A stretch of DNA of 64,000 bases, taken from positions 32,001 to 96,000 of the IMG/VR virus record IMGVR_UViG_3300045988_125846; one strand, written 5' to 3'. The notes beneath the pieces are model-generated. The model was not told the DNA's origin and ran no database searches. It worked only from the letters and a program-made list of their open reading frames with translations. This DNA comes from a virus. Each line of letters begins with the position of its first letter. Position 1 is the first letter of the stretch. A program made the translations under genes and the position numbers. Positions 4,050 to 42,484 of the stretch are shown in pieces.

Positions 4050-5141
4050 TCAGTTCACATCATTATGTGTTTCGCCATCTGAGTAATAAATGTTCCAATC
4101 CTTGAATAACTCAATCAACTTATCGTTATCCCAATCATATTCATTACAATGCGTAATGGCGATTGATTTTTTATCTCCGAAATCTTTTACATCATTAGAA
4201 CATCTACTATATAATTCTCCTAAATCCAATGTTCCATATCTCAATGTATCCTGGAATGGGTTTGGTATATTTGTTTTGTCAAACATATATTCATTGATAA
4301 ATCTCTTATTACATTCAGATGGAAATTTACCAGCACCATGTCTTGTTAAATAAGTACGAGATACATAACAAGTTTCAATATTTATCTCATCATTCCATTC
4401 AACATTTTCAATTATTCTCTTGGGATTTTTAATACCTGTATTAGACGGTGTTAAATGTGGAAAATATTCTGTGTTGTTCTGATCAAGCAATAAACCTTGT
4501 GCAGCTTCAAATACAATATTGTCAAACTGATTTAAGAAATAATTATCTGATATAGCCAATGAGTGATTATTCATAAAATCCCAATCATCTAAAAAGTGTT
4601 CAAATATACCATTATCAAAGAATATTCTTGACCATTCATCTGTTAATATGATATTCTCTCTTTCAAATTGTTCTAAGTAATATTCCCTGATATGATAATC
4701 CACATCAGTTATGCCAACTTTATATCTTTTAATCGTTTCAAAGATTCCTAAGCCACAACTACCGTGTTTATTTTTTCCACGATTTTCTTCAATAATCTGA
4801 TTTGCCATCATATCAAAAGGTGTTGTCAGCATACAATTTTGATTGATATAAACATTCGGAATATATCCTAATTTCATCAATTCATCATATTCCTGCTTAA
4901 AAATAATTGGATTAACAATAAAATCCTCAGATAAATATGTACTTGCATGATTGAATGTTCCAGATCCAAAATGATGAAAGACATGTCTGATTCCATCAGG
5001 CGTTGTTACGGTATGTCCTCTCTGAGCACCACCATTTGAACAAACAACAATACTATTAGGTTTCTGTGAGAAATAATCTGTCATTAATCCTTTTCCACAA
5101 TCTCCAAAGTTAGCACCTATCACAATCTTAATGTCTTTCAT
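4050..5141 (-). CDS. short-form adenylosuccinate synthetase-like protein (PurA/PurZ family candidate)
   Basis: N-terminal GANFGDCGKG (compare PurA GDEGKGK P-loop), NGGAQRGHT (compare GGHNAGHT) and HGSCGLGI (compare TTGRGIG). 363 aa, like archaeal/PurZ-type enzymes rather than the ~430-aa bacterial PurA. Confidence 0.7.
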   Translation of the reverse strand: MKDIKIVIGANFGDCGKGLMTDYFSQKPNSIVVCSNGGAQRGHTVTTPDGIRHVFHHFGSGTFNHASTYLSEDFIVNPIIFKQEYDELMKLGYIPNVYINQNCMLTTPFDMMANQIIEENRGKNKHGSCGLGIFETIKRYKVGITDVDYHIREYYLEQFERENIILTDEWSRIFFDNGIFEHFLDDWDFMNNHSLAISDNYFLNQFDNIVFEAAQGLLLDQNNTEYFPHLTPSNTGIKNPKRIIENVEWNDEINIETCYVSRTYLTRHGAGKFPSECNKRFINEYMFDKTNIPNPFQDTLRYGTLDLGELYSRCSNDVKDFGDKKSIAITHCNEYDWDNDKLIELFKDWNIYYSDGETHNDVN

Positions 5142-8534: not shown

Positions 8535-9545
8535 CTACTTTTTATTCATTTTCTTTACAAATTCACGATACTTCCTTGTATATTCGTAAGAATCTCCGAA
8601 AATATTATTAACAGCCTTATAAAGTTTTGGTTCATATTTTTGAATTACTTCTAATTCGTATTCAAAATCTCTACCAAATGGACAGCCTGCACAACCAGTT
8701 CTTTTCAGTCCGTATTCTGTATAACACTTGCTGTGTTCAATATCATAAGCATTTTCATAGTCTATTTTGTCTGAGTCTTTATACCAAAATAAAGGTCTAT
8801 AATTATCACAACCAGAATCATTTTCATCAAAACAACTTTTATATGCAGTTGCTCTTGCTCCACCTTCGGCTTTTCTTACACCTACAATATTTAGGTCAAA
8901 TGGTATTTTACCATCGCCATATACACCTTCTCTTAAAATCTTATGTGAGACATCTTTCTTCGCATATTGACAGCATTTGTTAGAAATTTTAAATGTTGGT
9001 GGGTTTTCAATCATAAATTCTTTTAGCCATTTATTATGAGTAATATTAAATTGACTACCATTACCTTTTATTTCACACCACCATTCCAATGCAGATTTGC
9101 ACTTAGGATATTTCTTATATAGCGTATCAAAATCCTCGTCTTCCCATTGGAAGTTATGTTTTTGTAATCTTTGGATAAATTCACTGACTTGCTTAGATAG
9201 AAATGGTTGTCCATATCGTTTACACGATAGTGAGATTGGCTTAATTGCTTTATATGAATTAATTGTTATATCATATTTATTTTCTAAATATTCGAGATGT
9301 TCTTTTGTTGCAGAATATTCTAATCCAGTATCAAACCAGACATACTTCACTTTATTACTTTTATCGCATCTATAAACAATATCCAACATATCATCACTAT
9401 CTGATCCGCCTGAAATAGAACATAGTATATATAAATATTTGTGGCTGTTAATTTTTGACCACGCTCTTATTAAATTGTCTCCTATTATTGAGTTTACAGG
9501 ACAATCCTGTAATAATTCTTCAATTGTATTAGCTTTCTGTACCAA
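8535..9545 (-). CDS. PAPS reductase/PP-loop ATP pyrophosphatase family protein (IbrA/DndC-like phage type)
   Basis: PP-loop SISGGSDSDD near the N-terminus and a C-terminal Cys cluster CYTEYGLKRTGCAGCPFG. TTG start after GAGGAAAG. Confidence 0.65.
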   Translation of the reverse strand: MVQKANTIEELLQDCPVNSIIGDNLIRAWSKINSHKYLYILCSISGGSDSDDMLDIVYRCDKSNKVKYVWFDTGLEYSATKEHLEYLENKYDITINSYKAIKPISLSCKRYGQPFLSKQVSEFIQRLQKHNFQWEDEDFDTLYKKYPKCKSALEWWCEIKGNGSQFNITHNKWLKEFMIENPPTFKISNKCCQYAKKDVSHKILREGVYGDGKIPFDLNIVGVRKAEGGARATAYKSCFDENDSGCDNYRPLFWYKDSDKIDYENAYDIEHSKCYTEYGLKRTGCAGCPFGRDFEYELEVIQKYEPKLYKAVNNIFGDSYEYTRKYREFVKKMNKK

Positions 9546-18736: not shown

Positions 18737-19474
18737 TTATTCGCCTCCTCTTATCTCAAACAACTTCTCTACAGTTTTCTCACCTGTAACTCTATCTGAC
18801 TTCTGCAATACCTTTCGTTCTTTCTGCCAAATACACTTAAAATCATCAGGCATATTATATTCACTTACTAACACTATATTATTCTCTGAAAGTTTACGAA
18901 GAAAATCGTAGAATTCGTCATAGTCGATTGACTGTTTAGAATACTGTTTTGTATTACGATATGGTGGATCGAAATAAAAGAGACAATTCTTATAATCTGC
19001 AAAGTCCTTATAATCACAACATCTAAATTCAATGTCATTTAAATCAGGAATTTGTGTTCTAAAATTCTTCAATCTTTCATTGTAAATACTTCTACCGCCC
19101 TTAGAATCTCTGCCATATCCACCATCAAAATACCTACCGCCATAAGATGCACAATATCCAATAAGTGCTATATACTCTTTTGAATATTTATGTGTTCCAA
19201 GTTTTCTATCTTCTCTTACATCGGAATAATGTTCAAATGTGCATACATCTGGTGCAATAGATAAATCATTATCAGACTGAGCATATTTCAATAAAGCAAT
19301 TAGTTCTTCATTAATGTCAGCTCCTATCTTCTTATCACATTTAATCTTATCAATTAAATTCGCTCCACCCACCATAGGTTCTATGTAAGTTTTAATATTA
19401 TTGTCATCAATATACTTCTGAATAATTGGCACTAAAAATTTTGCCAATCTATTTTTACTTCCTTGATATACCAT
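18737..19474 (-). CDS. dam: Dam-family (D12 class) DNA N6-adenine methyltransferase
   Basis: N-terminal YQGSKNRL and catalytic FYFDPPYRNT. No SD near the ATG; GAAAGGAG lies about 47 nt upstream. Confidence 0.7.
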   Translation of the reverse strand: MVYQGSKNRLAKFLVPIIQKYIDDNNIKTYIEPMVGGANLIDKIKCDKKIGADINEELIALLKYAQSDNDLSIAPDVCTFEHYSDVREDRKLGTHKYSKEYIALIGYCASYGGRYFDGGYGRDSKGGRSIYNERLKNFRTQIPDLNDIEFRCCDYKDFADYKNCLFYFDPPYRNTKQYSKQSIDYDEFYDFLRKLSENNIVLVSEYNMPDDFKCIWQKERKVLQKSDRVTGEKTVEKLFEIRGGE

Positions 19475-19775: not shown

Positions 19776-20057
19776 TTATGTATTCTTCCAATCTAATGCC
19801 TGACCACATTGATCACAATATTTAATGTCGGTATCTTTATATCCATCATCACACAATAGTTCACCACAAGCAGGACAATACCATTCAAACGGAATTCTCT
19901 CTCCGCTATTTTTCACTTTCTTTGGAATTTGTTTTTCTATTGCTGATATTGCAAATCTAATTGCTTCTAAAACGTTGTAATCAGGGTATGGCTTCCATGA
20001 TTTTTTCAAATATTCAAAATGTATTAAAAGAAACTTTTTAGCTTTATATGATGTCAT
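19776..20057 (-). CDS. zinc-ribbon protein (93 aa)
   Basis: CPACGELLC ... CDQCGQ. Confidence 0.45.
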   Translation of the reverse strand: MTSYKAKKFLLIHFEYLKKSWKPYPDYNVLEAIRFAISAIEKQIPKKVKNSGERIPFEWYCPACGELLCDDGYKDTDIKYCDQCGQALDWKNT

Positions 20058-20914
20058 CCTATTTCTCCTTTATATTCAGCTACTCTCTTACTTCCAACCT
20101 CAAAAATATTCTTATCTTTCTCAAAACATATGTAATTTCTACCTGTATTCAAAGCTGCGGCTGCCGTTGTACAACTTCCTGCACATGAATCAAGAACTAA
20201 ATCTCCTGGGTTGGTGTAGGTCTTAATGAAATACTCACACGCTTCAACAGGCTTTTGACATTGATGTAAGCTACTTTTCTGAGTATCCCACTTAAATTGC
20301 AAAACATCTCTTGGGTATCTTTGTGTGCTACCACCACCTGAAATACCAGTTTTTGTAGCACCATAACAATTACCATCTGTTGTATGTTTCGTATAAGAAT
20401 GTACAGGTGTATGCCCTTCTGTCATTTGGGGATTGTAAGTAGGGAGTTTCTTATAGAAAATCAAGACATTTTCGTGTGCCTTCATCGGCATTTTCTTTGC
20501 GTTTAGATGACCCGTTGCTTTGGTCTTTTCGATAATCCATTCATAGCGATATAGTTTTTCATTACTACAAGCGAGTCTCTTATCAAATGGTGATTGCGCC
20601 CATAATGCTATACAACCATTATCTTTGATAATTCGATTGTAATGAGTCCATAAACCATCTTTTTTGTTCTCATAAAACCAATCTCTTGTATATTCAAGAC
20701 TACTATTTGTTACTTGAGCTAACTTAAATAAATCTGTTTCATAAAAATATTGACCTGATAACTCCACATAATCATTTAACGGCATTTCACATTCCCAAGA
20801 ATTATTAGTCGTATTATAAGGTGGATCTGTGAAGATGAAATCAATTGACTTATCATCAATCTTTTTCATACCTTCAAGGCAATCTTCATTGTATATTTTG
20901 TTAATCTCTAACAT
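20054..20914 (-). CDS. DNA methyltransferase, N4-cytosine/N6-adenine (DPPY) family
   Basis: IDFIFTDPPYN near the N-terminus and a C-terminal SAM-binding DSCAGSCTTAAAA. This motif order is typical of the N6_N4_Mtase family. Confidence 0.7.
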   Translation of the reverse strand: MLEINKIYNEDCLEGMKKIDDKSIDFIFTDPPYNTTNNSWECEMPLNDYVELSGQYFYETDLFKLAQVTNSSLEYTRDWFYENKKDGLWTHYNRIIKDNGCIALWAQSPFDKRLACSNEKLYRYEWIIEKTKATGHLNAKKMPMKAHENVLIFYKKLPTYNPQMTEGHTPVHSYTKHTTDGNCYGATKTGISGGGSTQRYPRDVLQFKWDTQKSSLHQCQKPVEACEYFIKTYTNPGDLVLDSCAGSCTTAAAALNTGRNYICFEKDKNIFEVGSKRVAEYKGEIG

Positions 20915-30921: not shown

Positions 30922-31014
30922 TTATTTATTCTTCTTACGTTTTCCTACAATAAAACCTGCTCCAAAGCATACACCGAGACAGATTACGAAAACTCCAATG
31001 TTTAATACAATCAT
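30922..31014 (-). CDS. small hydrophobic peptide (30 aa)
   Basis: Own translation MIVLNIGVFVICLGVCFGAGFIVGKRKKNK. The ATG shares one nucleotide with the upstream stop (TAATG). Confidence 0.35.
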   Translation of the reverse strand: MIVLNIGVFVICLGVCFGAGFIVGKRKKNK

Positions 31015-31763
31015 TACTTATTACCTCTCTGTCTCTTCATATCATCAAGGATCTGGCGAGCATTGCGCTCTCTTTCAGAATTAGCAAGTCTTCTCTCATT
31101 AGCCTGTGCGCTAGAATCATATGCAATTCTACTTCCTTCTGCACGTTCTCTTGTCTTTCTTGCTCCTTCACGAACTCTTTCAAGCATTCTATCACTCTCA
31201 TTATTTGTATTAAGATTATCCATACTCTGATGAAGTTCGATAATCTGACTATCGGCTTCCATCTGAAAAAGAACCTGTTCCTTTTCCTCTTTAAGTTTCT
31301 GCAATTCTTCGGCTGCCTGATCACGAATGTCTTTTTGGTGAGCCTGTGCTTCTCTCATCTCTTCAATTGTATCTTTTAGTACATTAATCTTATTCTCCAA
31401 AGTAGACTTCTTCATTGCATACTGCATTGCTTCATTTTCTTTGTTTTCATCAAGACAAGCGTTAATCTGCTGTGTAACACGCATAATATCTTTATTTGCC
31501 TGATATAAGTCTTTTTCTGCTGTATCACGCTTTCCTGAAATTTCAGCATATGTAGCAGATGCCTTGTTATAAAAATCTTCCTTTTCTCTAATGGCTGCGT
31601 TATAATAATCTCTAGCACCTTCTGGTGTCTGTGCATCCTGACGCATTACTTCATCTGTTCTTCCTTTAAACTTTACTCGAAGCTGTTTACCAAAAGGAGT
31701 AAAGAAAAGAATCAGTGCAATTAATACAATCGCCACAATTATAATAAACATAAAATTTGTCAT
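31014..31763 (-). CDS. membrane-anchored coiled-coil protein, PspA/IM30- or TelA-like
   Basis: N-terminal TM helix FMFIIIVAIVLIALILFF, then about 220 aa of heptad-like Glu/Lys/Arg/Gln-rich sequence. The family call is tentative. Confidence 0.4.
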   Translation of the reverse strand: MTNFMFIIIVAIVLIALILFFTPFGKQLRVKFKGRTDEVMRQDAQTPEGARDYYNAAIREKEDFYNKASATYAEISGKRDTAEKDLYQANKDIMRVTQQINACLDENKENEAMQYAMKKSTLENKINVLKDTIEEMREAQAHQKDIRDQAAEELQKLKEEKEQVLFQMEADSQIIELHQSMDNLNTNNESDRMLERVREGARKTRERAEGSRIAYDSSAQANERRLANSERERNARQILDDMKRQRGNK

Positions 31764-31772
31764 ACAATCCTC

Positions 31773-32354
31773 CTACTCTGCATCAATTCCATACTGATTA
31801 CATAATGCCTTTAATCCACCATTATAGCCACTTCCTACAGCCTTAAACTTCCATTCGCCATTATGTTTATATATTTCAGATACGACTAACGCAGTCTCGG
31901 TAGAGAAGTCTTCACTTAAATCAAAACGAATAAGCTCCTCGCCTGTCTCTTCGTCTACTACACGCACATATGCATTTCCAACCATACCGAAGTTCTGAAG
32001 TCTACTCTCAGCATCATAAATTGTGACCGTCACAGCAAGAGTCTCATAGTCTGATGGGATTTTATCAAGTTTAATCTTAATAACCTCATCATCTCCATCT
32101 CCCTCACCTGTACGGTTATCTCCCATATGCTTTACACTTTTTGAACTATGTTCAAGATTACCATAGAAAATAAAATCCTCATCCTTGCCAACCTTGCCAT
32201 TCTCTTTTGTCATAAACACAGAGGCATCGAGATCAAAATCTGCTTCTCCGTCATAATGATTAATATCCCATCCAAGTCCAACAAGAATGTTTTTTAATGA
32301 CGGTCTACCCTTTGTTAAATCTACTCTCTGTCCTTTACTTAACGAAACTGACAT
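31773..32354 (-). CDS. terD: TerD-domain protein
   Basis: LSKGQRVDL, GLGWD, DFDLDASVF, GDNRTGEGDGDDE, FGMVGNAYVRV and GEWKFKAVGSGY. Confidence 0.85.
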   Translation of the reverse strand: MSVSLSKGQRVDLTKGRPSLKNILVGLGWDINHYDGEADFDLDASVFMTKENGKVGKDEDFIFYGNLEHSSKSVKHMGDNRTGEGDGDDEVIKIKLDKIPSDYETLAVTVTIYDAESRLQNFGMVGNAYVRVVDEETGEELIRFDLSEDFSTETALVVSEIYKHNGEWKFKAVGSGYNGGLKALCNQYGIDAE

Positions 32355-32366
32355 AATTAAATCCTC

Positions 32367-32942
32367 CTACTTGTATCTTCTTGTTAATTCGCTAACACTT
32401 GAATCATTTGTTCCCTGACCGATAGCGTTAAATTTCCACTCTCCGTCTTTCTTATAAACTTCTGCAAATACCATTGCTGTCTTGCCAGCATAATCATCTG
32501 AAAGATTGTATTTACAAATTTCCTTACCAGTTGACTCATCAACAAGTCTAATGTACGCATTCTTGATAAGTCCAAAATCCTGCTTTCTTGAAATACAATC
32601 ATAGATATTTACTACAAATACAATCTTCTCAACCTTATTTGTAATATTCGCAAGATCAACGGTAATCTGCTCATCATCACCGTCTCCATCTCCTGTGAGG
32701 TTGTCACCATGATGATACACACATCTGTCTTCCGCTGATCTGTCACCATAATAAACACATGTACGATACTTATCATCTTTTCCTAAAATAATTGCTGAAG
32801 CATCGCAATCAATGTTTGGCTTAGAACCAAATAATCCTTTCTTAGCAGCATCCCATCCAAGTCCTACCATAATCTTTGTAAGACCACCTGCTACTTCCTT
32901 AGATAAATTAATTTTCTGTCCTTTTACTAAATTTACTGACAT
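32367..32942 (-). CDS. terD: TerD-domain protein
   Basis: LVKGQKINL, GLGWD, DCDASA, GDNLTGDGDGDDE and GEWKFNAIGQG. Confidence 0.85.
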   Translation of the reverse strand: MSVNLVKGQKINLSKEVAGGLTKIMVGLGWDAAKKGLFGSKPNIDCDASAIILGKDDKYRTCVYYGDRSAEDRCVYHHGDNLTGDGDGDDEQITVDLANITNKVEKIVFVVNIYDCISRKQDFGLIKNAYIRLVDESTGKEICKYNLSDDYAGKTAMVFAEVYKKDGEWKFNAIGQGTNDSSVSELTRRYK

Positions 32943-32960
32943 ATATATTCTCCTTCCATT

Positions 32961-33539
32961 TTATAAATCAAGACCAAAATTTCTACCAATAGCAGCTAAA
33001 CCACCATTGTAACCTGAACCAACTGCATTAAACTTCCATTCACCGTTCTTACGATACAACTCACCTGCAATAACACCTGTCTCTAATGAGAAATCCTCAT
33101 TAAGTTCATATTTGAAAAGTTCCTCATTTGTATCAGCGTTGTATGCTCTAATGTACGAATTATCAACCATTCCGAAATTCTGTAAACGATTTTCTGCATC
33201 ATAAATTGTCGCTGAGAAGCTAATCTTTGTAATATTAGATGGAATCTTATTTAACTCAACAATCATTGTCTCGTCATCGCCATCACCTACACCTGTTCTA
33301 TTATCACCAGAATAAATCAATGCTCCGCTTGGATGCTGTGGCTGACCATAAAATACAAAATCCTGTTCGCCTGTTACCTTTCCTGAATCATCAGTAAAAA
33401 ATGCTGATACATCCAAATCGAAATCTGCATTACCATCGTATCTATTTGTATCCCATCCAAGACCAAATACGACTTTGTTTAAACCTGCATTGCCTTTTGT
33501 AAGGTCAATCTTCTGACCTTTAACTAAACTAATTGACAT
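32961..33539 (-). CDS. terD: TerD-domain protein
   Basis: Start trimmed to MSISLVKGQKIDL (SD AAGGAGG). GLGWD, DFDLDVSAF, GDNRTGVGDGDDE and GEWKFNAVGSGY. Confidence 0.85.
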   Translation of the reverse strand: MSISLVKGQKIDLTKGNAGLNKVVFGLGWDTNRYDGNADFDLDVSAFFTDDSGKVTGEQDFVFYGQPQHPSGALIYSGDNRTGVGDGDDETMIVELNKIPSNITKISFSATIYDAENRLQNFGMVDNSYIRAYNADTNEELFKYELNEDFSLETGVIAGELYRKNGEWKFNAVGSGYNGGLAAIGRNFGLDL

Positions 33540-33732
33540 ATTGTTTGTCCTCCTTATTCTTGGGAAGGCTGTCAACCTTCCCTTTTAATAATTTAAAAGA
33601 AATTGGGAATGTGAGTAACGTCAGAAAAATAAATGGAATAAAGCGTGTAATACATGCTACAACAACACTAATTGAAAAACATATAAGAGTAATAATCTCT
33701 ACTTTTTTATAACTTTTATCTCTCCTTATCAT
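33529..33732 (-). CDS. small membrane protein (67 aa, two predicted TM helices)
   Basis: Hydrophobic stretches IITLICFSISVVVACI and IPFIFLTLLTF. Lies between the ATPase and the terD genes. Confidence 0.45.
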   Translation of the reverse strand: MIRRDKSYKKVEIITLICFSISVVVACITRFIPFIFLTLLTFPISFKLLKGKVDSLPKNKEDKQYVN

Positions 33733-33748
33733 GTTCTCATCTCCTCAA

Positions 33749-36349
33749 TTACTTATTCTCTCTTTTCTTCTCAATAATCTTTCTAATAAGATCAATTGGA
33801 ATAACCATAAAGGCTAAAATTACAACTACTACCCAATGTTTGAAATCTAAAGCTGTGACCTTAATAAGATTTTCTGCAAAGTTGCAAAGAGCAAATGTCA
33901 TTGCAAAAATTCCGATTGCAATGGCTGAAAATAACTTATTCTTTCCAATGCCATTGAATAAATTAATATGCTCTGTACGAATATTAAATCCATTAAATAC
34001 TGCCATAAAGCATAACAATGCGAATCTCGCTGTCATAGCTTCTGTTTCAGATGCAAACATATTTGCAATTGGGCTAAATGTAATAATTCCATAGAGTACA
34101 ATAAATGCTACTGTACTAATCGCAATACGTTTCTTTGCTCCTCTAATGAATAAGCCAGAACCTTTCTTAATAGGTTTCTCTGTCATATACTCATCTTTTG
34201 GTGGTTCACCACCGAATGATAGTGAATTAAGGGAATCCATAATGATATTTACAATCAGAATCTGAACTGAAGCGAGTAATGCACCTGTTGCAATCATTGG
34301 ATAGATAACACTGAGAATCAGAAGTGAAATATTAATAGGTAACTGGAATTCAAGGAACATCATAATATTGTGCATAAATGTTCTTCCAAGTTCTACTGCC
34401 TTTACTACGCTTGCAAAATTATCATCTGTCAATACAATGTCTGAAGCTTCTTTTGCAACATCTGATCCACCTTGCATACCAAAACCAACATCAGCTCTCT
34501 TTAAAGCAGGACTATCATTTACTCCATCACCTGTCATTGCAACTGATTTTCCAATCTCTTGTGCTAATGTGACAAGTCTGAGTTTTGTGTTTGGTGAGCA
34601 TCTTGAAATAACTCTCAATCGAGGAATTATACTCTTTACTTCATCATCTGACATCGCTTCAAATTCATCATTTGTAAGTGCTAAATCTCCATCTTTGTAA
34701 ATTCCACACTCTGTAGCAACTGCAACTGCTGTCTCAATACAATCGCCTGTAATTTCAATAACTTGGATACCAGCCTTATGTGCTATTTTTACTGCACTCG
34801 GTACTTCATCTCTTACAGGATCTACAACACCGATAATTCCAAGGAATGTCATGTCATTTGGTATTTCATTCTCTACTAAATCACCATCTGCCATTGTAAC
34901 TGCAATACATCTCATCGCATTACTTGTCATCGCTGTAATTGCATTACTTAATGTATCATTGTCGTTATTCTCTACAATTTCACCACTTGAGTCCATTACT
35001 TTTGTACAATGCTCAATCAATTTCTCAGGTGCGCCCTTATAGTATGTAACTCCATCCTTTGTCGTAAAAGCTGAATACTTATTACTACTATTAAATACCT
35101 GCTTTAACTTAACTGGATATTTTTTCTGAATGTCAGCATGTGTTTCAGGATTTACAAGGCTAAGAACTGCTCTATCAATTGAATTACCACCTGTAATATT
35201 GTTTTCTGAATCAAATGTTGCACTATTATTTAAAGAAATGTTTGCCTCGATATTATTCCAAAGAACCGAATCCTTATTTACATCATTACCAAAGCCATCA
35301 ATAATCTTCTTTGGAGTCATAATACCTGTCGTAAGAGTACCTGTCTTATCAGTACAGATAATATCAACATATGCTAACTCTGGAATTTTACCAGGATTCT
35401 TAGCAAGAATATTGAATTTCTCCATTGTCTTTACATTCTGTTTTGTTACAAGTTTTACAATAAGAGGCAATCCTTCGGGAACAGCAGCTACAATAATTGT
35501 TAATGCTACTGAGAAGTTCTGTGCGATTTTCTGAATAATATTCAGAACGCCACCGCTAAAATATTCTCCAAATCCAACCTGTACAATTCCTGAAATTGTA
35601 AGCACCGCAAATGTAATAACGGCTGCGATTGTTCCCCACTTAGAAATGAAGTCGCTCAGATTATCAAGTGCAATATCAAGTGCTGTCTTTGGTGCTTCAA
35701 GTGTTTGCATTTTAACAAGCGTATCGCCATTTACTGTATTCACACCTACATCAGTAACAATCATTTTTCCTTCGCCTGACATTACTGTTGTGCCAGCAAA
35801 TAAGCAATTCTGATTCGTATAAGCATCTGTTGAAGTAGTTTTCTTATGAACGTATCCTTCAATTGGTGTTTTCTTACACTCTTTTGTTTCTCCATTAATA
35901 GCTGCATTGTTTACAGAAATCTTACCTTCAATGAGATATCCATCTGCAAAAATCTCTTGTCCCATTCCTACACAAACAAGATCACCAACTACCAATTCAT
36001 CCTTATTAATTGTTTGAACTTTGCCATCACGAATTACGTCACAATACCTGACTGATGTTTTGGCTCTCAACTCTGCTGCTGATTTTTGAACACCAAGTCC
36101 AGTCTTAACAGCAATACATGTTACAATTGCTAATACAACAAGAATCATAATTGGATCTGATAAATCCATTACTCCCATGACTCCAAGGAATAACTGCAAT
36201 ACTGCAATTGCAATAAGAATCATTGTGATTTTCTCACTTAATGCCTCCTTTGCGAAGTCATACCACTTGTCCAACTTTGGTTCAGGAAGCTTATTACTTC
36301 CATGAAGCTCTCTACTTTTGAGAACTTCTTTACTACTCAATCCATTCAT
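33749..36349 (-). CDS. P-type (P2, Ca2+-transporting type) cation ATPase
   Basis: Cation_ATPase_N-like LSSKEVLKSRELHGSNKL, phosphorylation site ICTDKTGTLT, and hinge MTGDGVNDSPALKRADVGFGM. 866 aa with multiple TM segments. Confidence 0.85.
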   Translation of the reverse strand: MNGLSSKEVLKSRELHGSNKLPEPKLDKWYDFAKEALSEKITMILIAIAVLQLFLGVMGVMDLSDPIMILVVLAIVTCIAVKTGLGVQKSAAELRAKTSVRYCDVIRDGKVQTINKDELVVGDLVCVGMGQEIFADGYLIEGKISVNNAAINGETKECKKTPIEGYVHKKTTSTDAYTNQNCLFAGTTVMSGEGKMIVTDVGVNTVNGDTLVKMQTLEAPKTALDIALDNLSDFISKWGTIAAVITFAVLTISGIVQVGFGEYFSGGVLNIIQKIAQNFSVALTIIVAAVPEGLPLIVKLVTKQNVKTMEKFNILAKNPGKIPELAYVDIICTDKTGTLTTGIMTPKKIIDGFGNDVNKDSVLWNNIEANISLNNSATFDSENNITGGNSIDRAVLSLVNPETHADIQKKYPVKLKQVFNSSNKYSAFTTKDGVTYYKGAPEKLIEHCTKVMDSSGEIVENNDNDTLSNAITAMTSNAMRCIAVTMADGDLVENEIPNDMTFLGIIGVVDPVRDEVPSAVKIAHKAGIQVIEITGDCIETAVAVATECGIYKDGDLALTNDEFEAMSDDEVKSIIPRLRVISRCSPNTKLRLVTLAQEIGKSVAMTGDGVNDSPALKRADVGFGMQGGSDVAKEASDIVLTDDNFASVVKAVELGRTFMHNIMMFLEFQLPINISLLILSVIYPMIATGALLASVQILIVNIIMDSLNSLSFGGEPPKDEYMTEKPIKKGSGLFIRGAKKRIAISTVAFIVLYGIITFSPIANMFASETEAMTARFALLCFMAVFNGFNIRTEHINLFNGIGKNKLFSAIAIGIFAMTFALCNFAENLIKVTALDFKHWVVVVILAFMVIPIDLIRKIIEKKRENK

Positions 36350-37016: not shown

Positions 37017-37331
37017 TTATTTATCTACAACAACTATCTCTTTGCCACAATAAGGACAATATTTTAAATTTGCCATATTTTCAGGTATCCTCCAATATGG
37101 ATCATCAGCATCGTCATGTTCTTTCGGGCAAATCGTTCTATAATCGTATTTTATCCATTTACAAGTTTGTATTTCCTCGTATCTTCGGAGTACAACATTT
37201 CCTCCGTCAATAAATATTTCCATTGGCTCACCAATTGCGTCTGCTTTTCCAAACACCAGTCTTCTAATTTCCTTTGGAATTACTATTCTACCTAAGTCGT
37301 CAAATCTACGAATTGTTCCCATAATTTTCAT
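37017..37331 (-). CDS. AbrB/MazE/SpoVT-fold DNA-binding protein with C-terminal zinc ribbon
   Basis: IRRFDDLGRIVIPKEIRR at the N-terminus; CPKEHDD...CPYCGKE at the C-terminus. Confidence 0.6.
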   Translation of the reverse strand: MKIMGTIRRFDDLGRIVIPKEIRRLVFGKADAIGEPMEIFIDGGNVVLRRYEEIQTCKWIKYDYRTICPKEHDDADDPYWRIPENMANLKYCPYCGKEIVVVDK

Positions 37332-37597
37332 CTTTCACCTCTCTTCTAAAGAAACGAACTTTATTTTGATATTTCTATTTTAATTTCTGTTCATTTACCA
37401 TTTTTAATAATGGAATAATCCAACTCAGAACGAGAAGAATGTCATTTGGATATTGATTCAGCCATAGAAATGAGATACTATATATGTATATCGACTTCTG
37501 GATTATTCCTAGTTGATATGCGAGATGGGCAACAGCAACTTCACGACATATCGTTGCCCATCTTTTATGTAAAAGCTATTGCTTATTACCAAATTGA

Positions 37598-39805
37598 TTA
37601 CGCATTTGCTATAAAATTATCAAAGCTGCGTTTCATATATGTATAATTAACTTTCTGTGATGAACTAAAATCAGATTTATTTCTGTAATTCTCAATCCAT
37701 TTTTCAAAATCCTGATCCTTATCATTTTGACAAGCATATGCCATGAGTGCTACTAATGCCATTCCACACTCTTTATAAACTGGATCGTCAATCTTAACAC
37801 AATCTTCTACCATGTCTGTGTAAAGGTTTATATCTTCGTCTGTCACATTTGGATTTGCATTTTCTTGAACAAAGGAAAGAACACTTTCTTCCGTATTTTC
37901 TTCAGCACTTTCTTTCGTATTGTTATTCTCCAATTCTGTGTTATTTACTTCTCTTGTACCAATATGTAAAAATTCATTCATCAGTTTTATAAGTAAATCA
38001 ATTTTACCTGTAATAGTTGCCTTTTTCTTTGTCTGTTGGTCTTTAAAATCTGCCATAGATACACCATCAACTTCTTTATCTTTAAGTTCTGTATTATATG
38101 CTCTTAAGAAATCAATGAATCTTGAATCTTCAATATTATATGTAGTAAATTTATCAAATACTGCAATCCACATTGGCATTGTAGTTGGAGTAAGTAATGA
38201 CTTCAAGTCTTTATTGTCATCGCCTAATGCTAATTCCAATCTATTAAAATGTGAATTAAGTTTTAAGAACTGCTGTTCTGTTGCATTTTCATCAACATAT
38301 TTGTAAATTGTATCAAGTTTTGCTTTCCATGAATCACGGAAGAACATTAACATTATTGATTCTGCAACAACACGTTCCAACTTTCCCTTAATAACATTAT
38401 TATCTGTAAACTTCCCACAATTTTTAAAGAATGTGTTTTTCTGTGAAATATTTTTAATATATCCCGCTGTCTGTGCAGATACATTAAGAAAACCACCCTG
38501 TTCCTTATTCATACTCGCATGATTGTTATAATCACGAATATGATCTGCAATCTGCTCATCTGTACAATCAAAGAATTTTGTTACGTTTATATTGAAATTA
38601 TTGAATCGTTTCTTTAACTCATCAGGAAGATCTTTATAATATTTCCCTATAACATCAAATATTTTCATCTCATATTCTGGTAAGCCATCTTCATCAAGTA
38701 CACGATTTCCATTATCATCTAAGACATAATCTCTATACTGAATTAAATGTCTCTCTGCTCCTGCTGAACCAATCTTAATACGATTTTCCTTGAATGCCTC
38801 AGCATATGAAAGTCTCTGCAATCCGTCAATTAAATGAGAGATTGTCAATCCCTTTTTCTTCTGTTCACAAAGAATAATTTCTGGAATAGGAAGATTACTA
38901 AGAATACGACAAAAATATCTATTCGCTTCTTCTGTAGTCCACTGAAAAGGTTCACGTTGCAAGATGTAGTTGCAGTTCACGTCTCCATTTTTCTTATCCT
39001 GTAACAACGAATACATGCTATACTTGTCCGTCCTGTAATTTTCAGATTCGCTAATTTCAATAATTCTGTCTTCCATATTATTTACCTCCACATCATAATT
39101 CCCATCATTTTTATTCTTTGAAAATACTGAAAGTCCTTTATTTATCTTAATTGACTTCATAGCACTACTATATTCTCTGTCTGATATATTCAATTTTTGT
39201 TTTATATTATCAGCAGGAACATTCTCCATCCGCATCAGCAAAATATTTTTTTGTATCCTCGGCAAAGAATCAATAAAATTATCAACTTTTTCATCGGCAC
39301 TAAAATCGAACTCACTCTTGTCTTCTACGTTAAAGTCAGATGCAATTTTTTCTACTAAATCATTATCTTCTTCAGTAGGTGCATCAAATGAAGTATCTGG
39401 AATAATAACTGGTTTTCCTTTATCGTCATCTGTTACATTTCCATTTTTATCAACCTTTACTATCTTTCCATTTTTATCAGTTAATAGATTTTTTCTTTTA
39501 CATCTCTGATAGTTGTCTCTATACCAGTCAATAACAGATTTTTTAATATTATTAATAAGGTAAGTTTTAAAACTCGCACCTTGAGATGAATCAAAGTTGA
39601 TAACACTTTCCATCAGAACATTCATTGCATCATCGTACAATTCGTCATGTTCATGTGCTGGAATCCCATACCTGAAAAATGCATTGTAACTAATTTTCTT
39701 CAATTTTGACATATCATTTACACAGTATTCAGTAATCCATTCCAACTGTTGTGATGAAAGATTATTTAATTTTTCACGCAATATTTCGTCTTTCACTTCA
39801 TGCAC
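37598..39805 (-). CDS. fusion protein: sigma-70-family (regions 2 and 4) N-terminus plus a DUF262 (ParB/Srx-fold) domain
   Basis: Region-2-like YDDAMNVLMESVINFDSSQGASFKTYLINNIKKSVIDWYRD. Region-4-like LPRIQKNILLMRMENVPADNIKQKLNISDREY. DUF262-like QREPFQW ... LIDGLQRLSY. GTG start. Confidence 0.6.
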   Translation of the reverse strand: MHEVKDEILREKLNNLSSQQLEWITEYCVNDMSKLKKISYNAFFRYGIPAHEHDELYDDAMNVLMESVINFDSSQGASFKTYLINNIKKSVIDWYRDNYQRCKRKNLLTDKNGKIVKVDKNGNVTDDDKGKPVIIPDTSFDAPTEEDNDLVEKIASDFNVEDKSEFDFSADEKVDNFIDSLPRIQKNILLMRMENVPADNIKQKLNISDREYSSAMKSIKINKGLSVFSKNKNDGNYDVEVNNMEDRIIEISESENYRTDKYSMYSLLQDKKNGDVNCNYILQREPFQWTTEEANRYFCRILSNLPIPEIILCEQKKKGLTISHLIDGLQRLSYAEAFKENRIKIGSAGAERHLIQYRDYVLDDNGNRVLDEDGLPEYEMKIFDVIGKYYKDLPDELKKRFNNFNINVTKFFDCTDEQIADHIRDYNNHASMNKEQGGFLNVSAQTAGYIKNISQKNTFFKNCGKFTDNNVIKGKLERVVAESIMLMFFRDSWKAKLDTIYKYVDENATEQQFLKLNSHFNRLELALGDDNKDLKSLLTPTTMPMWIAVFDKFTTYNIEDSRFIDFLRAYNTELKDKEVDGVSMADFKDQQTKKKATITGKIDLLIKLMNEFLHIGTREVNNTELENNNTKESAEENTEESVLSFVQENANPNVTDEDINLYTDMVEDCVKIDDPVYKECGMALVALMAYACQNDKDQDFEKWIENYRNKSDFSSSQKVNYTYMKRSFDNFIANA

Positions 39806-39815: not shown

Positions 39816-39998
39816 TCATTTCCTTTTTCTGTCTAACTCTCTATACAAATATTCTCCAAAACTCAACTCATTATCATTGATTTTTATATGTCGTGTCTCT
39901 GAACAACATTTCGGACAACGACAGAATTTCTCATGCTTGTCCTTTGAGAACGACATAACTCCAATCATCGGAATATAACAATTTTTACAAATCACCAT
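39816..39998 (-). CDS. zinc-ribbon protein (60 aa)
   Basis: Start trimmed to the ATG after AAGGAAGG. CKNC ... CRCPKCC. Confidence 0.45.
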   Translation of the reverse strand: MVICKNCYIPMIGVMSFSKDKHEKFCRCPKCCSETRHIKINDNELSFGEYLYRELDRKRK

Positions 39999-40011
39999 AT
40001 ATATCCTTCCT

Positions 40012-40629
40012 TTACAAATCAAACAGCTCGTTCATTACTCGTGGTTCATATGTACGCTTATCCATTTTCGACATGGATTCCAAAATCTCATTTGTAACTG
40101 TGTCAGAAATCTTTTTATCAAGAATAATGTTAAGAATTTGTATCTCATTTTTAATACTTCTTCTTTTTATTCTCCGTTCCTTTATCATCTTATATGCTTT
40201 CCATCCTTGTGCTGCATTAAGATTGCAAAATTCTATATAATGATTGATATCGGATAATTCCCTATCTACAAAGCTAAGTTCTTCACACAACTCTTCTTTT
40301 CTATGTAATGCATCTGTTGCTAATCCGTTAAGATCAGTTATTTTGTCAATCCATTTCTGGATATTTTCAGCAACCATAACTTTTTCAGTATTATTTTCCA
40401 CTTCTGATTGTGTAATCTGTTTTACATTATCGGGTGGGGTATCAATTTTCTGGATATGAAATACTGATTTCAAGGCTTTGGGTAGCGAGTTATTATATAG
40501 ATTATTGGCTGCTTTATTTGAAAATGTATCAGCCAATGCCTCGCAAGATGTTGGAACATATTTACCATTACGATTTCTCATAATCCAACGAGAACCGTCT
40601 GTAATTACATATTGTGCCAACGTAATCAT
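40012..40629 (-). CDS. hypothetical protein (about 205 aa)
   Basis: The ATG abuts the SD; a TTG 9 nt downstream of GGAG is an alternative start. Confidence 0.5.
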   Translation of the reverse strand: MITLAQYVITDGSRWIMRNRNGKYVPTSCEALADTFSNKAANNLYNNSLPKALKSVFHIQKIDTPPDNVKQITQSEVENNTEKVMVAENIQKWIDKITDLNGLATDALHRKEELCEELSFVDRELSDINHYIEFCNLNAAQGWKAYKMIKERRIKRRSIKNEIQILNIILDKKISDTVTNEILESMSKMDKRTYEPRVMNELFDL

Positions 40630-40654
40630 CTCCTCTCTTTGTTTGATTTAGCAA

Positions 40655-40728
40655 TGGATCATCAGAGACTTGAACTCTGAGCCTTTCGGTTATGAGCCGA
40701 ATGCACTAACCAATTGTGCTAATGATCC
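40655..40728 (-). tRNA. tRNA-Met: tRNA-Met (anticodon CAT; elongator type, or Ile2 if lysidinylated), no encoded CCA
   Basis: Hand-folded cloverleaf: acceptor GGATCAT/ATGATCC, D stem GCAC/GTGC, anticodon stem TTCGG/CCGAA with loop CTCATAA, T arm CAGAG-TTCAAGT-CTCTG, discriminator A. Confidence 0.85.
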
Positions 40729-40760
40729 AAGTCGCTGACACTATCGCAAGTTTATCAGGA

Positions 40761-40813
40761 AGTTCTATAGTATCAGCTTGTAATCCGTTAGTGGATCAGG
40801 CTATGGTAGAACT
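40761..40813 (-). other. 53-nt structured spacer between the two tRNAs (7-bp terminal stem, 6-bp inner stem with loop ACTAAC)
   Basis: AGTTCTA...TAGAACT terminal pairing. The inner stem TGATCC/GGATTA contains a G-U pair only in the minus-strand sense. There are no D or T arms, so this is not a canonical tRNA. Confidence 0.3.
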
Positions 40814-40892
40814 ATAGCAACTACACATTTTGCTCTTACAATGATTAATTCTTGCGTTCTGCGATAGAACCCGGTCTGGAAGTATCGCATAG

Positions 40893-40964
40893 CAGGGCAT
40901 ATCAGATTCGAACTGACAAATTTCGCAGTCAAAGTGCGATGCCTTACCGCTTGGCGAATGCCCT
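40893..40964 (-). tRNA. tRNA-Gln: tRNA-Gln (anticodon TTG), no encoded CCA
   Basis: Hand-folded: acceptor AGGGCAT/ATGCCCT, anticodon stem TCGCA/TGCGA with loop CTTTGAC, T arm GTCAG-TTCGAAT-CTGAT, discriminator G. Confidence 0.8.
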
Positions 40965-41194: not shown

Positions 41195-41223
41195 ATAATA
41201 CTCCAAACATTTGTTCTTGTCAA
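41195..41223 (-). promoter_or_regulatory. sigma-A-type promoter (TTGACA-17-TATTAT) reading toward the tRNA genes
   Basis: -35 at 41218-41223 and -10 at 41195-41200, on the minus strand. Confidence 0.55.
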
Positions 41224-41295: not shown

Positions 41296-41547
41296 TCAGG
41301 ACACTATTTGGGGAAACTTAATATTATGCACAATAAATTCCTGCACTCCATCCAGCGAAAGCAACCCAAAAAAGTCATTATCTTGATAATTAATTGTGTT
41401 TGCCCTATTTATTATTCGCTTTCCTTCATCAACAGTTATCTGTCTTGGTCTTGTATGGATAAAAGTCATACCGTTGAAGGAATCAACCCATATTTTGCCA
41501 GGTGTTTCATCAATCATTTTTTTTGCTATTTCTTTATCTACATACAT
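41296..41547 (-). CDS. hypothetical protein (83 aa), translationally coupled to the MazF-like gene
   Basis: The ATG shares one nucleotide with the mazF-like stop (TAATG). No family recognised. Confidence 0.5.
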   Translation of the reverse strand: MYVDKEIAKKMIDETPGKIWVDSFNGMTFIHTRPRQITVDEGKRIINRANTINYQDNDFFGLLSLDGVQEFIVHNIKFPQIVS

Positions 41548-41927
41548 TATGCCATTACCTCCTCAAGCTTGTAGTCTGTTCCAAAAAATAAAGAATTAAA
41601 GCATACTTTATCTACCATTCTTTTATTTTTATCATCAGTAATAGTTCCAATTTTTGAGATCACTTCATCTTTTGAGATTGTTGTGATCTGCTCACCTAAC
41701 GCCATAGAATATAATGTTAATCCATTATTTTCATTTGCTTGAATACATCCATGACAAGGCATGTTTGTCTTTTTAATCTTACTTGTCAAAGGCATCACTG
41801 TTATAATCGGAGCATATTTCGTACCCAATGGATTACTTACTATTACATAAGGTCTTTCATTCGCTTGTACCGAATTTCCTTCATAATTGATTTTTGCCTT
41901 TATTATGTCGTATCTCTGTAAATCCAT
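41547..41927 (-). CDS. mazF: MazF/PemK/EndoA-family endoribonuclease toxin
   Basis: Aligns by eye with B. subtilis EndoA: RYDIIKAKI...ERPYVIVSN...IITVMPLTSKI...LGEQITTISKDEVISKIGTI. Confidence 0.75.
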   Translation of the reverse strand: MDLQRYDIIKAKINYEGNSVQANERPYVIVSNPLGTKYAPIITVMPLTSKIKKTNMPCHGCIQANENNGLTLYSMALGEQITTISKDEVISKIGTITDDKNKRMVDKVCFNSLFFGTDYKLEEVMA

Positions 41928-41984: not shown

Positions 41985-42013
41985 ATTATAGCAAGTTGTC
42001 ATCAACTTGTCAA
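41985..42013 (-). promoter_or_regulatory. consensus sigma-A promoter (TTGACA-17-TATAAT) for the mazF-like operon
   Basis: -35 at 42008-42013 and -10 at 41985-41990. The spacer contains the palindrome CAAGTTGtcatCAACTTG (41992-42009). Confidence 0.65.
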
Positions 42014-42040
42014 TGGGTTTATGTCAGTTTTTTAAAATAA

Positions 42041-42069
42041 TTGACATATAGTTTGCAACAACTTATAAT
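42041..42069 (+). promoter_or_regulatory. consensus sigma-A promoter (TTGACA-17-TATAAT) for the RHH gene
   Basis: -35 at 42041-42046 and -10 at 42064-42069. The spacer contains AGTTtgcaacAACTT, related to the palindrome in the divergent promoter. Confidence 0.65.
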
Positions 42070-42099: not shown

Positions 42100-42270
42100 A
42101 TGCCACAAGGAAAAATCAAAGATGAAAACACAAGGGTTATGGTGCTTCTTTCTAAAGATATAAAAGAAAAGGCAGCCAGAATTGCAACAGCAGATGGACG
42201 CTCGTTATCTGGTTGGATTCGTAACCTCGTAACAAATGAAGTTAATAAGTTTGACGACACTAAGAAATAG
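42100..42270 (+). CDS. ribbon-helix-helix (CopG/Arc/Mnt-like) DNA-binding protein (56 aa)
   Basis: Own translation MPQGKIKDENTRVMVLLSKDIKEKAARIATADGRSLSGWIRNLVTNEVNKFDDTKK; SD AAAGGAG 9 nt upstream. Below the track length cutoff. Confidence 0.7.
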   Translation: MPQGKIKDENTRVMVLLSKDIKEKAARIATADGRSLSGWIRNLVTNEVNKFDDTKK

Positions 42271-42283: not shown

Positions 42284-42484
42284 TTACACAAACTTTACAA
42301 GATCAAATGGTTTAACTTCCATCACATTTGCTACAAGTTCTAATACTGCCAGATCTGGAACTGCACTTCCATTTTCCCATTTACTAATTGTACTTGGTGC
42401 AATATCAGCCATTTTCGCAAGTCCTCTTACTGTTATTCTTTTTTCGGTTCTGATTTTCTTTCCAATATATTCAACCATAATCAC
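42284..42484 (-). CDS. XRE-family helix-turn-helix regulator (66 aa)
   Basis: ITVRGLAKMADIAPSTISKWENG. The start overlaps the integrase stop (ATGA). Confidence 0.7.
   Translation of the reverse strand: MIMVEYIGKKIRTEKRITVRGLAKMADIAPSTISKWENGSAVPDLAVLELVANVMEVKPFDLVKFV

Follow-up and report, generated by a model that had tools for sequence, protein, structure and literature searches.

A complete sigma-70-family factor joined to a nuclease-less DUF262-ParBDB module in a family of human-gut phages

The DUF262 domain and the ParBDB DNA-binding domain have together been described as DNA-sensing, DNA-binding nucleoside triphosphatase (NTPase) modules, with ParBDB being reported for NsnA, DndB, GmrSD and SspE (PMC12065111). 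Among the N-terminal domains that the survey of the Menshen system lists for NsnA, the only sigma type is a domain resembling sigma region 1.1 (PMC12065111). In a 2025 preprint, Kaljevic et al. reported a bacterial protein in which a PF02195 ParB-CTPase fold is fused to Sigma70 domains and which binds ATP in DRaCALA, a ligand-binding assay based on differential radial capillary action (doi 10.1101/2025.10.10.680097). The subject here is a viral gene whose single open reading frame (ORF) encodes a sigma-70-family factor and a DUF262-ParBDB module. It lies at 37598..39805 on the minus strand of a 64,000-nucleotide stretch (positions 32,001 to 96,000 of IMG/VR record IMGVR_UViG_3300045988_125846), hereafter called the window. 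A sequence-only reading of this stretch knew of no characterised sigma-DUF262 fusion. No characterised example was found in the searchable literature, but the related PF02195-Sigma70 fusion is already on record.

That bacterial protein and the phage family described here have in common a ParB-superfamily fold, binding nucleoside triphosphate (NTP) in the former, joined to sigma-70 domains. The survey in the preprint was made by PF02195 only and mentions neither DUF262 nor GmrSD, and its example is bacterial and has no function assigned (10.1101/2025.10.10.680097). The phage family, in contrast, belongs to the PF03235 branch, carries ParBDB and occurs in fused, split and apparently internally initiated forms. 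We favour reading it as a phage alternative sigma factor paired with a nuclease-less DUF262-ParBDB module for NTP-dependent DNA binding or sensing, a reading that we hold about as firmly as we doubt it.

The ORF is complete, with a start that is ambiguous by three codons: a second in-frame GTG, at 39796, follows the first one at 39805 and gives the 732-amino-acid (aa) form chosen by many gene callers. Near-identical proteins of 732-737 aa occur in hundreds of independent contigs, and full-length relatives (28-100% identity) in 146 IMG/VR viral contigs. The recurrence of the same intact protein in so many independent contigs argues that the ORF is no sequencing or assembly artefact, which disposes of the worry that two ORFs had been joined by a sequencing error and answers the call to look for the architecture in other genomes. 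When 1.8 billion representatives clustered at 50% identity were searched, there were 707 relatives at E<1e-3 and 225 at E<1e-30; among the best 150, about 60 have both halves (670-930 aa) and about 63 have the DUF262 half only (440-610 aa). Family-level domain counts given below refer to a family alignment of 60 diverged full-length members, and neighbourhood comparisons to 81 related loci. Existing annotation names one half at a time, with one UniProt homologue titled only "DUF262 domain-containing protein" and some near-identical copies called only "sigma-70 family sigma factor" by JGI. The motifs quoted in the sequence-only reading were correctly placed, at residues 79-97 (FKTYLINNIKKSVIDWYRD), 181-193 (LPRIQKNILLMRM), 207-212 (ISDREY), 283-289 (QREPFQW) and 325-334 (LIDGLQRLSY). 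The layout of the gene is as follows.

37598..39805, minus strand: complete sigma-DUF262 ORF, 735 aa, GTG start, stop codon at 37598-37600
39491..39754, minus strand: sigma region 2 domain, residues ~18-105, three long helices (Pfam, family profile, AlphaFold2/Foldseek)
39296..39490, minus strand: beta-hairpin insertion (residues 106-135) followed by a region-3.2-like linker, together residues ~106-170 (alignment, family profile, model)
39116..39295, minus strand: sigma region 4 helix-turn-helix (HTH) domain, residues ~171-230 (family profile; model helices 170-227)
39041..39115, minus strand: unconserved interdomain linker, residues 231-255 (low model confidence; split-gene junction)
39074..39089, minus strand: predicted internal Shine-Dalgarno (SD) sequence and start, GGAGG at 39085-39089, 8 nucleotides (nt), ATG at 39074-39076 (Met244), conserved in 55/55
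38516..39040, minus strand: ParB/Srx-fold DUF262 (GmrSD_N) domain, residues 256-430 (profiles, fold, conserved motifs)
37961..38515, minus strand: all-helical domain, residues 431-615, corresponding to the ParBDB DNA-binding domain of NsnA, DndB, GmrSD and SspE (NsnA profile, PMC12065111, model)
37601..37885, minus strand: C-terminal five-helix domain, residues 641-735, with W703 nearly invariant (alignment, model)

Residues 1-230 were confirmed as a sigma-70-family factor made of sigma2, a region-3.2-like linker and sigma4, with the sigma3 domain being absent from the layout in both alignment and model. What the N-terminus holds is a whole sigma, of the size seen in group 3/4, and not a helix-turn-helix alone. 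Region 2, which had been proposed from the sequence, is borne out by Pfam Sigma70_r2 (PF04542), which scores 28.3 bits over residues 43-98 against a gathering cut-off of 24 bits and matches 28 of the 60 relatives at E<0.01, by the family profile and by its fold: the N-terminal domain of SigE superposes on the sigma2 model with a template-modelling (TM) score of 0.76 and a root-mean-square deviation of 2.5 Å. Its signature in the window protein, DELYDDA..VL..FD...FKTYL...R.KR, corresponds to DDFYS.A..V....YD....F..YL......NR.KR in the family alignment. The linker carries SFDAPTE..DL.EKIASDF in the window protein and the consensus SLDxP........LxDxIxS in the family (S139 in 51/60, D141 in 46/60), and in a comparison of the family profile with the PDB this segment aligns to PVSLETPIGEE..LGDFI of SigA region 3.2.

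Region 4, expected near residues 180-225, is weak when the window protein is taken alone and is carried by its relatives, by an alignment to sigma-H and by the model helices. About 30 of the 60 relatives match region-4 or extracytoplasmic function (ECF)-type models (Sigma70_r4_2 11, Sigma70_ECF 10, GerE 8, r4 2). The best PDB match of the family profile is sigma-H (3mzy, E 1.1e-9), which it follows from region 2 through region 4, and the next are SigA, FliA, RpoS and SigB. For the window protein itself, NCBIfam TIGR02937 (sigma70-ECF) spans residues 43-218, from region 2 to region 4, with 41.5 bits, 1.4 short of its cut-off of 42.9, and PHROG 351 (sigma factor) matches at E 4.8e-12. An AlphaFold2 model of residues 1-232 has a predicted local distance difference test (pLDDT) score of 87.4, and all 50 of its 50 best PDB fold matches found by Foldseek are sigma factors, the best-ranked ones aligning over 200-290 columns of whole sigma factors; the global TM of the model is low, which is to be expected of two mobile domains. 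Applied to the window and to MT835469, a distantly related phage genome, the family sigma-domain profile, whose PDB matches include SigA, SigH and FliA, found no further ORF resembling a sigma factor.

Residues 256-615 were confirmed as a module of the kind found in NsnA, DndB and GmrSD, in which a ParB-DUF262 domain is followed by the helical ParBDB. The DUF262 hallmarks noticed from about residue 280 were supported by profile matches, by fold hits and by near-invariant motifs. Pfam GmrSD_N (DUF262) matches residues 281-422 of the window protein below its gathering cut-off (E 5.8e-5) and is found in 45 of the 60 relatives, with a best E of 7.7e-18. Three motifs recur, LQRepFQW (I), IDGlQR (II) and YN..(A/P)MN..Q (III), with Q283, R284, G328 and N427 present in 60/60 members, D327 in 59/60, Q330 and R331 in 58/60 and W289 in 55/60; the nucleotide-pocket motifs QR..W and DGxQR are essentially invariant. 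In the defence library (PADLOC), NsnA of Menshen is the best and only match (E 5.1e-11), and the 765-aa homologue in MT835469 covers positions 17-383 of the 385 in the NsnA profile. The long helical C-terminus is reproduced with high confidence in the AlphaFold2 model, whose mean pLDDT over the full length is 85.5. Full-length Foldseek comparison with the PDB gave weak global scores, owing to the flexible multi-domain layout, with BrxU (7p9k) at the top and sigma factors, ParB, Noc and SspE lower. In the viral structure library (BFVD), the best match is a 753-aa "DUF262 domain-containing protein" of an uncultured siphovirus (E 1.7e-40), and many GmrSD_N proteins match at 1e-6 to 1e-13.

The C-terminal DUF1524 His-Me/HNH nuclease of the type IV restriction enzymes GmrSD, BrxU and SspE, with which the protein shares an N-terminal DUF262, is absent. 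No DUF1524 or HNH match was obtained in the window protein or in any of the 60 relatives, and no His, Asp or Asn column after residue 430 is invariant or conserved to at least 90% in the family alignment. Together with the all-helical nature of residues 431-735, this indicates that there is no GmrSD-type nuclease. The earlier likening to GmrSD and SspE holds for the domain and not for the closeness, the nearest proteins being nuclease-less ones of the NsnA/DndB type. PF02195 (ParBc) has no match in the window protein or the 60 relatives, nor is the DndB family among the Pfam matches of the same proteins. The protein also differs in its surroundings from DndB, which is encoded with the phosphorothioation genes dndCDE, since the only PAPS-reductase-like gene is 28 kb away and has no dndDE neighbours.

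NsnA, DndB, GmrSD, BrxU and SspE all have a DUF262 with QR..W and DGxQR that is followed by a helical ParBDB, and type II NsnA may add an optional N-terminal DNA-binding domain. This likeness admits another explanation, in which the protein is a conflict-system sensor of the NsnA/GmrSD kind, acting in superinfection exclusion, defence or counter-defence, and the sigma-like part is an extra DNA-binding or decoy domain; in one variant the protein may bind host RNA polymerase (RNAP) to shut off host transcription. NsnA is the best defence-library match and often has polymorphic N-terminal DNA-binding domains, including sigma-70 region-1.1-like ones. Evolution is fast, with 27% identity between two phages that share a PurA-like cassette at 83-86%, and the gene lies near a MazF/PemK toxin in a variable region, with stand-alone DUF262 paralogues in the same neighbourhoods. 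Even so, we consider this explanation unlikely. Neither NsnB (an ABC ATPase with DUF3696), nor an NsnC effector, nor a nuclease domain was found within 10 kb on either side or among the conserved neighbours in the 81 loci. A complete sigma2, an RNA-exit-channel-type 3.2 linker and sigma4, in canonical order and size and also encoded as a separate gene, exceed what a DNA-binding add-on needs, and this combination is not among the N-terminal classes listed for NsnA. The gene is a syntenic core gene, apparently universal in its phage lineage, unlike sporadic defence cargo or the bacterial defence islands of Menshen.

The two halves meet in a linker that is unconserved (mean pairwise identity 13%) and disordered, with pLDDT <50 for residues 233-253. 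In 17 of the 81 loci, the sigma factor (213-225 aa) and the DUF262 protein (478-520 aa) are encoded by adjacent genes, in the order sigma, stop codon, SD, an ATG 12-17 nt after the stop, and DUF262 module, and the split point falls exactly within the disordered linker of the fusion. A neighbour-joining tree built on the DUF262 module groups these 17 loci into a single clade. Each of two short DUF262 representatives chosen out of the global search likewise has a sigma gene immediately upstream of it; these sigma genes, of 186 aa and 224 aa, match the family sigma profile at E 5e-56 and 4e-39, respectively. The stand-alone sigma versions (186-225 aa) have canonical sigma size. More remote DUF262-ParBDB proteins, for example that of Bacillus phage PJN02, have no sigma neighbour. 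As judged from these sequences, the pairing of sigma and DUF262 is older than the fusion.

A second start appears to lie inside the fused gene. The sole GGAGG of the 2.2-kb ORF precedes the ATG of Met244, from which a DUF262-only product of 492 aa is predicted. In each of the 55 distinct fused genes compared (27-100% identity), an in-frame ATG that stands 6-21 codons ahead of the DUF262 domain is preceded, at a distance of 5-11 nt, by a strong SD. The chance expectation of such a pair is 0.065 per scanned segment, only three others occur elsewhere in the 55 genes, and of the 95 GGAGG motifs that the genes contain, 54 fall here. The residues encoded at the SD vary (VEV, EEE, KED, MED, TED) while the nucleotide signal is kept. 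A conserved SD-ATG within an unconserved linker suggests that a free DUF262 module is probably made too, so that the fused genes would probably give two products, the sigma-DUF262 protein and a DUF262-only protein of about 490 aa, the latter being the predicted equivalent of the second gene of the split clade. Two such products would fit a module that oligomerises; in ParB N-domains and in BrxU, dimerisation depends on nucleotide. Given the split clade and the internal start in every fused gene, the unit is best seen as a sigma plus a DUF262 partner. The join that was first reported is genuine, but a single polypeptide is probably not the whole of it.

The same observations might be taken to mean that the fusion is incidental, with two neighbouring genes having lost a stop codon, the separate proteins being the functional ones, sigma acting in the usual way and the job of DUF262 being unrelated to sigma. 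A split clade, an internal SD-ATG in all fused genes and a disordered, unconserved linker would all be expected on that account, which we nonetheless find very improbable. The fused state has been kept over most of the family diversity (27-100% identity) with no interrupting stops in 55 genes, and the split forms keep strict adjacency, with a gap of only 12-17 nt. Maintained fusion and strict adjacency in the split forms argue for selection for co-expression and physical coupling of sigma and DUF262.

The following features lie upstream of the gene, on the side where gene order is conserved.

39816..40022, minus strand: zinc-ribbon protein, CxxC...CxxC, 60-68 aa, directly upstream; in 46/81 loci
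40012..40629, minus strand: 205-aa partner protein, fold unassigned; in 71/81 loci, at position -1 or -2
40654..40964, minus strand: tRNA-Met and tRNA-Gln, between the promoters and the 205-aa partner gene
41195..41223, minus strand: sigma-A-type promoter-like site, TTGACA-17-TATTAT, 11/12, upstream of the tRNAs and the operon
41985..42069, both strands: two face-to-face consensus promoters by sequence match, TTGACA-17-TATAAT, 12/12 each
Flanks of 41985-42069: switch-like region, with a 56-aa gene at 42100-42270 (plus strand) and further genes at 42284-42478 and 41547-41927 (both minus strand)

The minus-strand 12/12 promoter has an extended TG and points towards MazF/PemK, both tRNAs, the gene of the 205-aa partner and the sigma-DUF262 gene, and the plus-strand one faces the 56-aa gene, whose product looks ribbon-helix-helix-like by eye. 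With sigma-A-type promoters upstream, the sigma-DUF262 gene is probably read early by the host housekeeping holoenzyme, and tRNA-Met and tRNA-Gln are probably co-transcribed with the operon. Over the 81 loci, the upstream order is DUF6618, tyrosine integrase, HTH_3, a small divergent gene, MazF/PemK, a small ORF, tRNAs, the 205-aa protein, the 60-aa zinc ribbon and the sigma-DUF262 gene, and the downstream side is variable. The 205-aa protein is the most conserved neighbour, with invariant D122 and H130 and a basic coiled-coil tail; no Pfam, PHROG or PDB relationship was found for it, and its profile search returned only homologues of 70-100% identity. The promoters of the switch region lie between the 56-aa gene and the MazF/PemK-like toxin gene, with the HTH_3 protein and the tyrosine integrase just beyond, and a palindrome, AAGTTGATGACAACTT, is located within the spacer of the minus-strand 12/12 promoter.

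Under the favoured reading of a sigma factor with a DUF262-ParBDB partner, host RNAP would transcribe the gene early from the sigma-A-type promoters. Translation from the first start would give a sigma covalently tethered to one DUF262 module, and the internal SD-ATG at Met244 would give the free module. The sigma part would redirect host core RNAP, probably of Lachnospiraceae, to the middle or late promoters of the phage. As in NsnA, DndB, SspE and GmrSD, the DUF262-ParBDB part would be a DNA-binding switch, probably dimerising, that binds or hydrolyses NTP; it would either tether or license sigma on suitable DNA, or keep it inactive until DNA and NTP are bound. The coupling would be covalent in the fused forms and by adjacent gene in the split clade. 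In this scheme, RNAP binding, NTP binding, dimerisation, the DNA feature sensed, the timing class and the target promoters are what we infer.

That nucleotide binding or the DNA modification state may gate which promoters are used, as put forward in the sequence-only reading, is plausible. In its specific form, an NTP-gated and DNA-tethered sigma, DUF262 would dimerise with free DUF262, close on or sense phage DNA and thereby unmask or deliver sigma; this we put forward tentatively, as a rather doubtful extension. The cue may be methylated phage DNA or loading sites such as pairs of a 16-base-pair (bp) palindrome. Two DNA methyltransferases are present in the window, a D12-class enzyme at 18737..19474 and an N6_N4 enzyme at 20054..20914, together with the PAPS-reductase-like gene at 8535..9545; three methyltransferases had been claimed, of which two were confirmed along with the PAPS-reductase-like gene. 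A PurZ or Z-genome cue (aminoadenine DNA) was considered for the 363-aa PurA-like gene at 4050..5141 and rejected, as the PDB matches listed are all adenylosuccinate synthetase and none is PurZ. Its annotated phage homologues come from phages that are not known to be Z-genome phages.

SPO1 gp28 and gp33/34, and T4 gp55 with gp33 and the gp45 sliding clamp, are phage sigma factors and co-factors. The predicted role here is similar in that an early phage sigma retargets host RNAP. In T4 the late sigma is coupled to a clamp loaded on DNA, to which a sigma tied to a ParB-like DNA clamp or sensor would be parallel in concept. No sequence relationship to gp45 or gp33 was noticed, no comparison aimed at one having been made. 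Unlike in T4 and SPO1, the coupling in this family is covalent or by adjacent gene, and it is to a ParB-superfamily NTP-switch protein. If the NTP-gated sigma is real, it would be a one-protein counterpart of the T4 late-transcription device of gp45 clamp, gp33 and gp55. ECF41 and ECF42 are ECF sigmas in which a C-terminal regulatory extension in cis replaces a separate anti-sigma. They resemble the phage protein, in principle only, by having sigma2 and sigma4 followed in cis by a C-terminal domain; they are bacterial, and their extensions are SnoaL-like or tetratricopeptide (TPR) domains and not NTPases, whereas here the extension is a 500-aa DUF262-ParBDB that is also encoded separately or, as predicted, made separately.

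Candidate target motifs were sought in the window, the structural (late) arm of the phage lying beyond it. RGAGAATAAT, the SD-proximal element that had been proposed as a sigma target, has 70 matches against 30 expected, and 66 of the 70 are on the coding strand; it was rejected as a promoter, being explained by an SD coupled to an upstream stop codon at gene junctions. An TTTCTTTGGAG-like element was likewise rejected, since its enrichment is diffuse and it appears to be part of hairpins (AGAAAC..ATTTCT) in 5' untranslated regions. The k-mer enrichment in the window gave only SD, RGAGAATAAT and such TTTCTTTGGAG-like or hairpin items. The other proposed target, the paired palindromes, belongs to a cassette of two 16-bp palindromes, ATACNATATATNGTAT, which are 31-32 bp apart and followed by a hairpin, AGAAAC-N4-6-ATTTCT, and then an SD. 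At least four cassettes precede operons in the window.

1851-1893: palindrome cassette
22796-22838: palindrome cassette
30834-30877: palindrome cassette
55083-55126: palindrome cassette

The cassette recurs in more than 40 related loci, including MT835469 and the locus L102 (28838-28880), and is nearly invariant between phages whose sigma-DUF262 proteins share only 27-38% identity. Palindromic symmetry and invariance speak against a sigma promoter and for a regulator that is conserved and dimeric; the palindromes do not look like targets of a sigma, and the cassette is probably an operator pair for such a regulator. The palindromes may alternatively be ParB-like loading sites for the DUF262 module. 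Single copies in relatives are found at about the position of the regulatory switch, that of MT835469 lying between a divergent helix-turn-helix gene and the MazF/PemK gene.

The palindromes also raise the possibility that the protein is a regulator of the ParB type, which binds DNA at specific sites without ever joining RNAP and serves in prophage or episome maintenance, or in repression by spreading or clamping as with KorB, VirB and DndB. The region-4 HTH and ParBDB would bind sites such as the palindrome pairs, and the DUF262 NTP switch would set spreading and release. The pairs persist family-wide, even at 27% protein identity, and parS sites are likewise 16-bp palindromes. KorB, VirB and Noc-like proteins are ParB-family CTP switches that regulate transcription or DNA occupancy over distance; they share the ParB-fold nucleotide switch with the phage protein and differ in being repressors or anti-silencers that act through their own HTH, in lacking sigma domains and in belonging to the PF02195 branch. 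DndB is summarised as a DUF262-related, ATP-dependent transcriptional repressor (PMC12065111; 10.1101/2025.10.10.680097), and a tyrosine integrase and a regulatory switch adjoin the operon here. We judge this possibility to be quite improbable, because sigma2 and the 3.2 linker have no known role beyond RNAP. Canonical ParABS is also unlike the locus, in which no ParA-like gene was found near the sigma-DUF262 gene, PF02195 has no match and the similarity to ParB and Noc is one of remote fold only. Other candidate binders of the palindrome are encoded nearby (HTH_3, the 56-aa ribbon-helix-helix-like protein and an AbrB/MazE-like protein), the single copy in relatives sits in the switch region beside those genes, and the palindrome is invariant while the DNA-binding parts of the protein vary.

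The first gene after the fusion (37017-37331, minus strand) encodes this last protein, of 104 aa, which has an AbrB/MazE/SpoVT-type swapped-hairpin domain and a C-terminal zinc ribbon and is a further candidate regulator of the palindrome cassettes. Between the two genes, past the stop of the fusion (37440-37575, minus strand), there is a stem of 10 perfectly paired bp, GATGGGCAAC...GTTGCCCATC, that encloses a 19-nt loop and lacks a T-run; after it come 11-bp inverted repeats, GGAATAATCCA...TGGATTATTCC, separated by about 80 nt.

Several points weigh against an alternative sigma factor with a DUF262-ParBDB partner. Pfam Sigma70_r4_2 is weak in the window protein (E 0.085, 13 bits against a cut-off of 25.7), and the sigma half is less conserved than the DUF262 half, with a mean pairwise identity of 29% against 38%. 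The full-length model has a predicted TM score (pTM) of 0.60, which makes the interdomain geometry uncertain. No recurrent bipartite non-sigma-A motif was found among 5-mer dyads with 12-21 nt spacing in 48 upstream regions, and the upstream regions of MT835469 late genes gave only hairpin and T-rich TATTTTAT elements, which look like terminators; as late promoters they were rejected, being indistinguishable from terminators. The internal start is a prediction from sequence, and core RNAP binding is an inference throughout. Finally, type II Menshen NsnA proteins carry assorted N-terminal DNA-binding sensor domains, of which the sigma-like part could be one.

By its content, the window appears to be a segment of a large phage genome, with every ORF annotated by look-up on the minus strand, many small ORFs, two tRNAs and clusters of auxiliary genes. 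The related IMG/VR viral contigs are 90-215 kb long, and the architecture marks a diverse clade of human-gut phages. MT835469, a 176-kb tailed phage from human faeces, encodes a DNA polymerase, a primase-helicase, NrdD, portal, tail fibres and an endolysin, and no RNA polymerase was found among the ten large ORFs scanned. A GTDB scan with the single protein returned nothing, and one with a 5-sequence alignment found relatives matching most of the protein in metagenome-assembled genomes of Lachnospira, Roseburia, Hungatella, Eubacterium, Acetatifactor and unclassified Lachnospiraceae, which suggests that the hosts are Lachnospiraceae. Stand-alone DUF262 paralogues of 172-179 aa, which consist of the domain by itself, are encoded a few genes upstream of the integrase in 15 of the 81 loci and also in one variant contig with the identical sigma-DUF262 protein; examples are L004 802-1320 and L001 2986-3516, and none is in the window. 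In MT835469, a 330-aa DUF262-ParBDB paralogue is encoded in the late arm (154203-155195, minus strand). Mobile insertions are seen upstream of the operon in otherwise syntenic relatives, namely IS605 OrfB/TnpB (L003 3106-4251) and a GIY-YIG homing-endonuclease-like gene (L105 1579-2241).

Elsewhere in the window, the PurA-like gene and two neighbours (4050-6656, minus strand) are 83-86% identical to MT835469 49808-52414. Almost nothing else is shared with that genome at this level, and the cassette looks, from its sequence, to have been recently exchanged. A cluster for NAD salvage and synthesis at 22846-27358 (minus strand) contains an isochorismatase/PncA-like protein, DUF5662, NAPRTase, a NadD-like cytidylyltransferase, an AP2-domain protein and NAD synthase. 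A stress and ion block at 31014-36349 (minus strand) contains a P-type cation ATPase (866 aa), three TerD paralogues and a PspA/IM30-like protein. The tRNA-related enzymes at 28366-30790 (minus strand) are a RlaP nucleotidyltransferase and a CCA-adding enzyme. The related contig L007 (943-3015) has an RNA ligase and a KTI12/AAA_33 kinase-like protein upstream of the PAPS-reductase-like gene, a placement outside the window or at its edge, and a variant contig has Thg1 (L004 17255-17881). These enzymes suggest a toolkit for tRNA repair and maintenance alongside the two phage tRNAs.

Sigma control is usually exerted by anti-sigma factors, by proteolysis or by small fused sensor domains, and ParB folds are now emerging as general NTP switches. 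The family described here joins a sigma factor to a ParB-fold switch in widespread and abundant human-gut phages, and an NTP-gated sigma, if true, would be the first sigma factor under a ParB-superfamily nucleotide switch. The fused, split and putatively internally initiated forms are natural controls for a testable question, that of whether a nucleotide-dependent DNA clamp or sensor can gate promoter use by bacterial RNAP. The result also opens a way to study how uncultured phages, apparently infecting Lachnospiraceae, regulate their genes.

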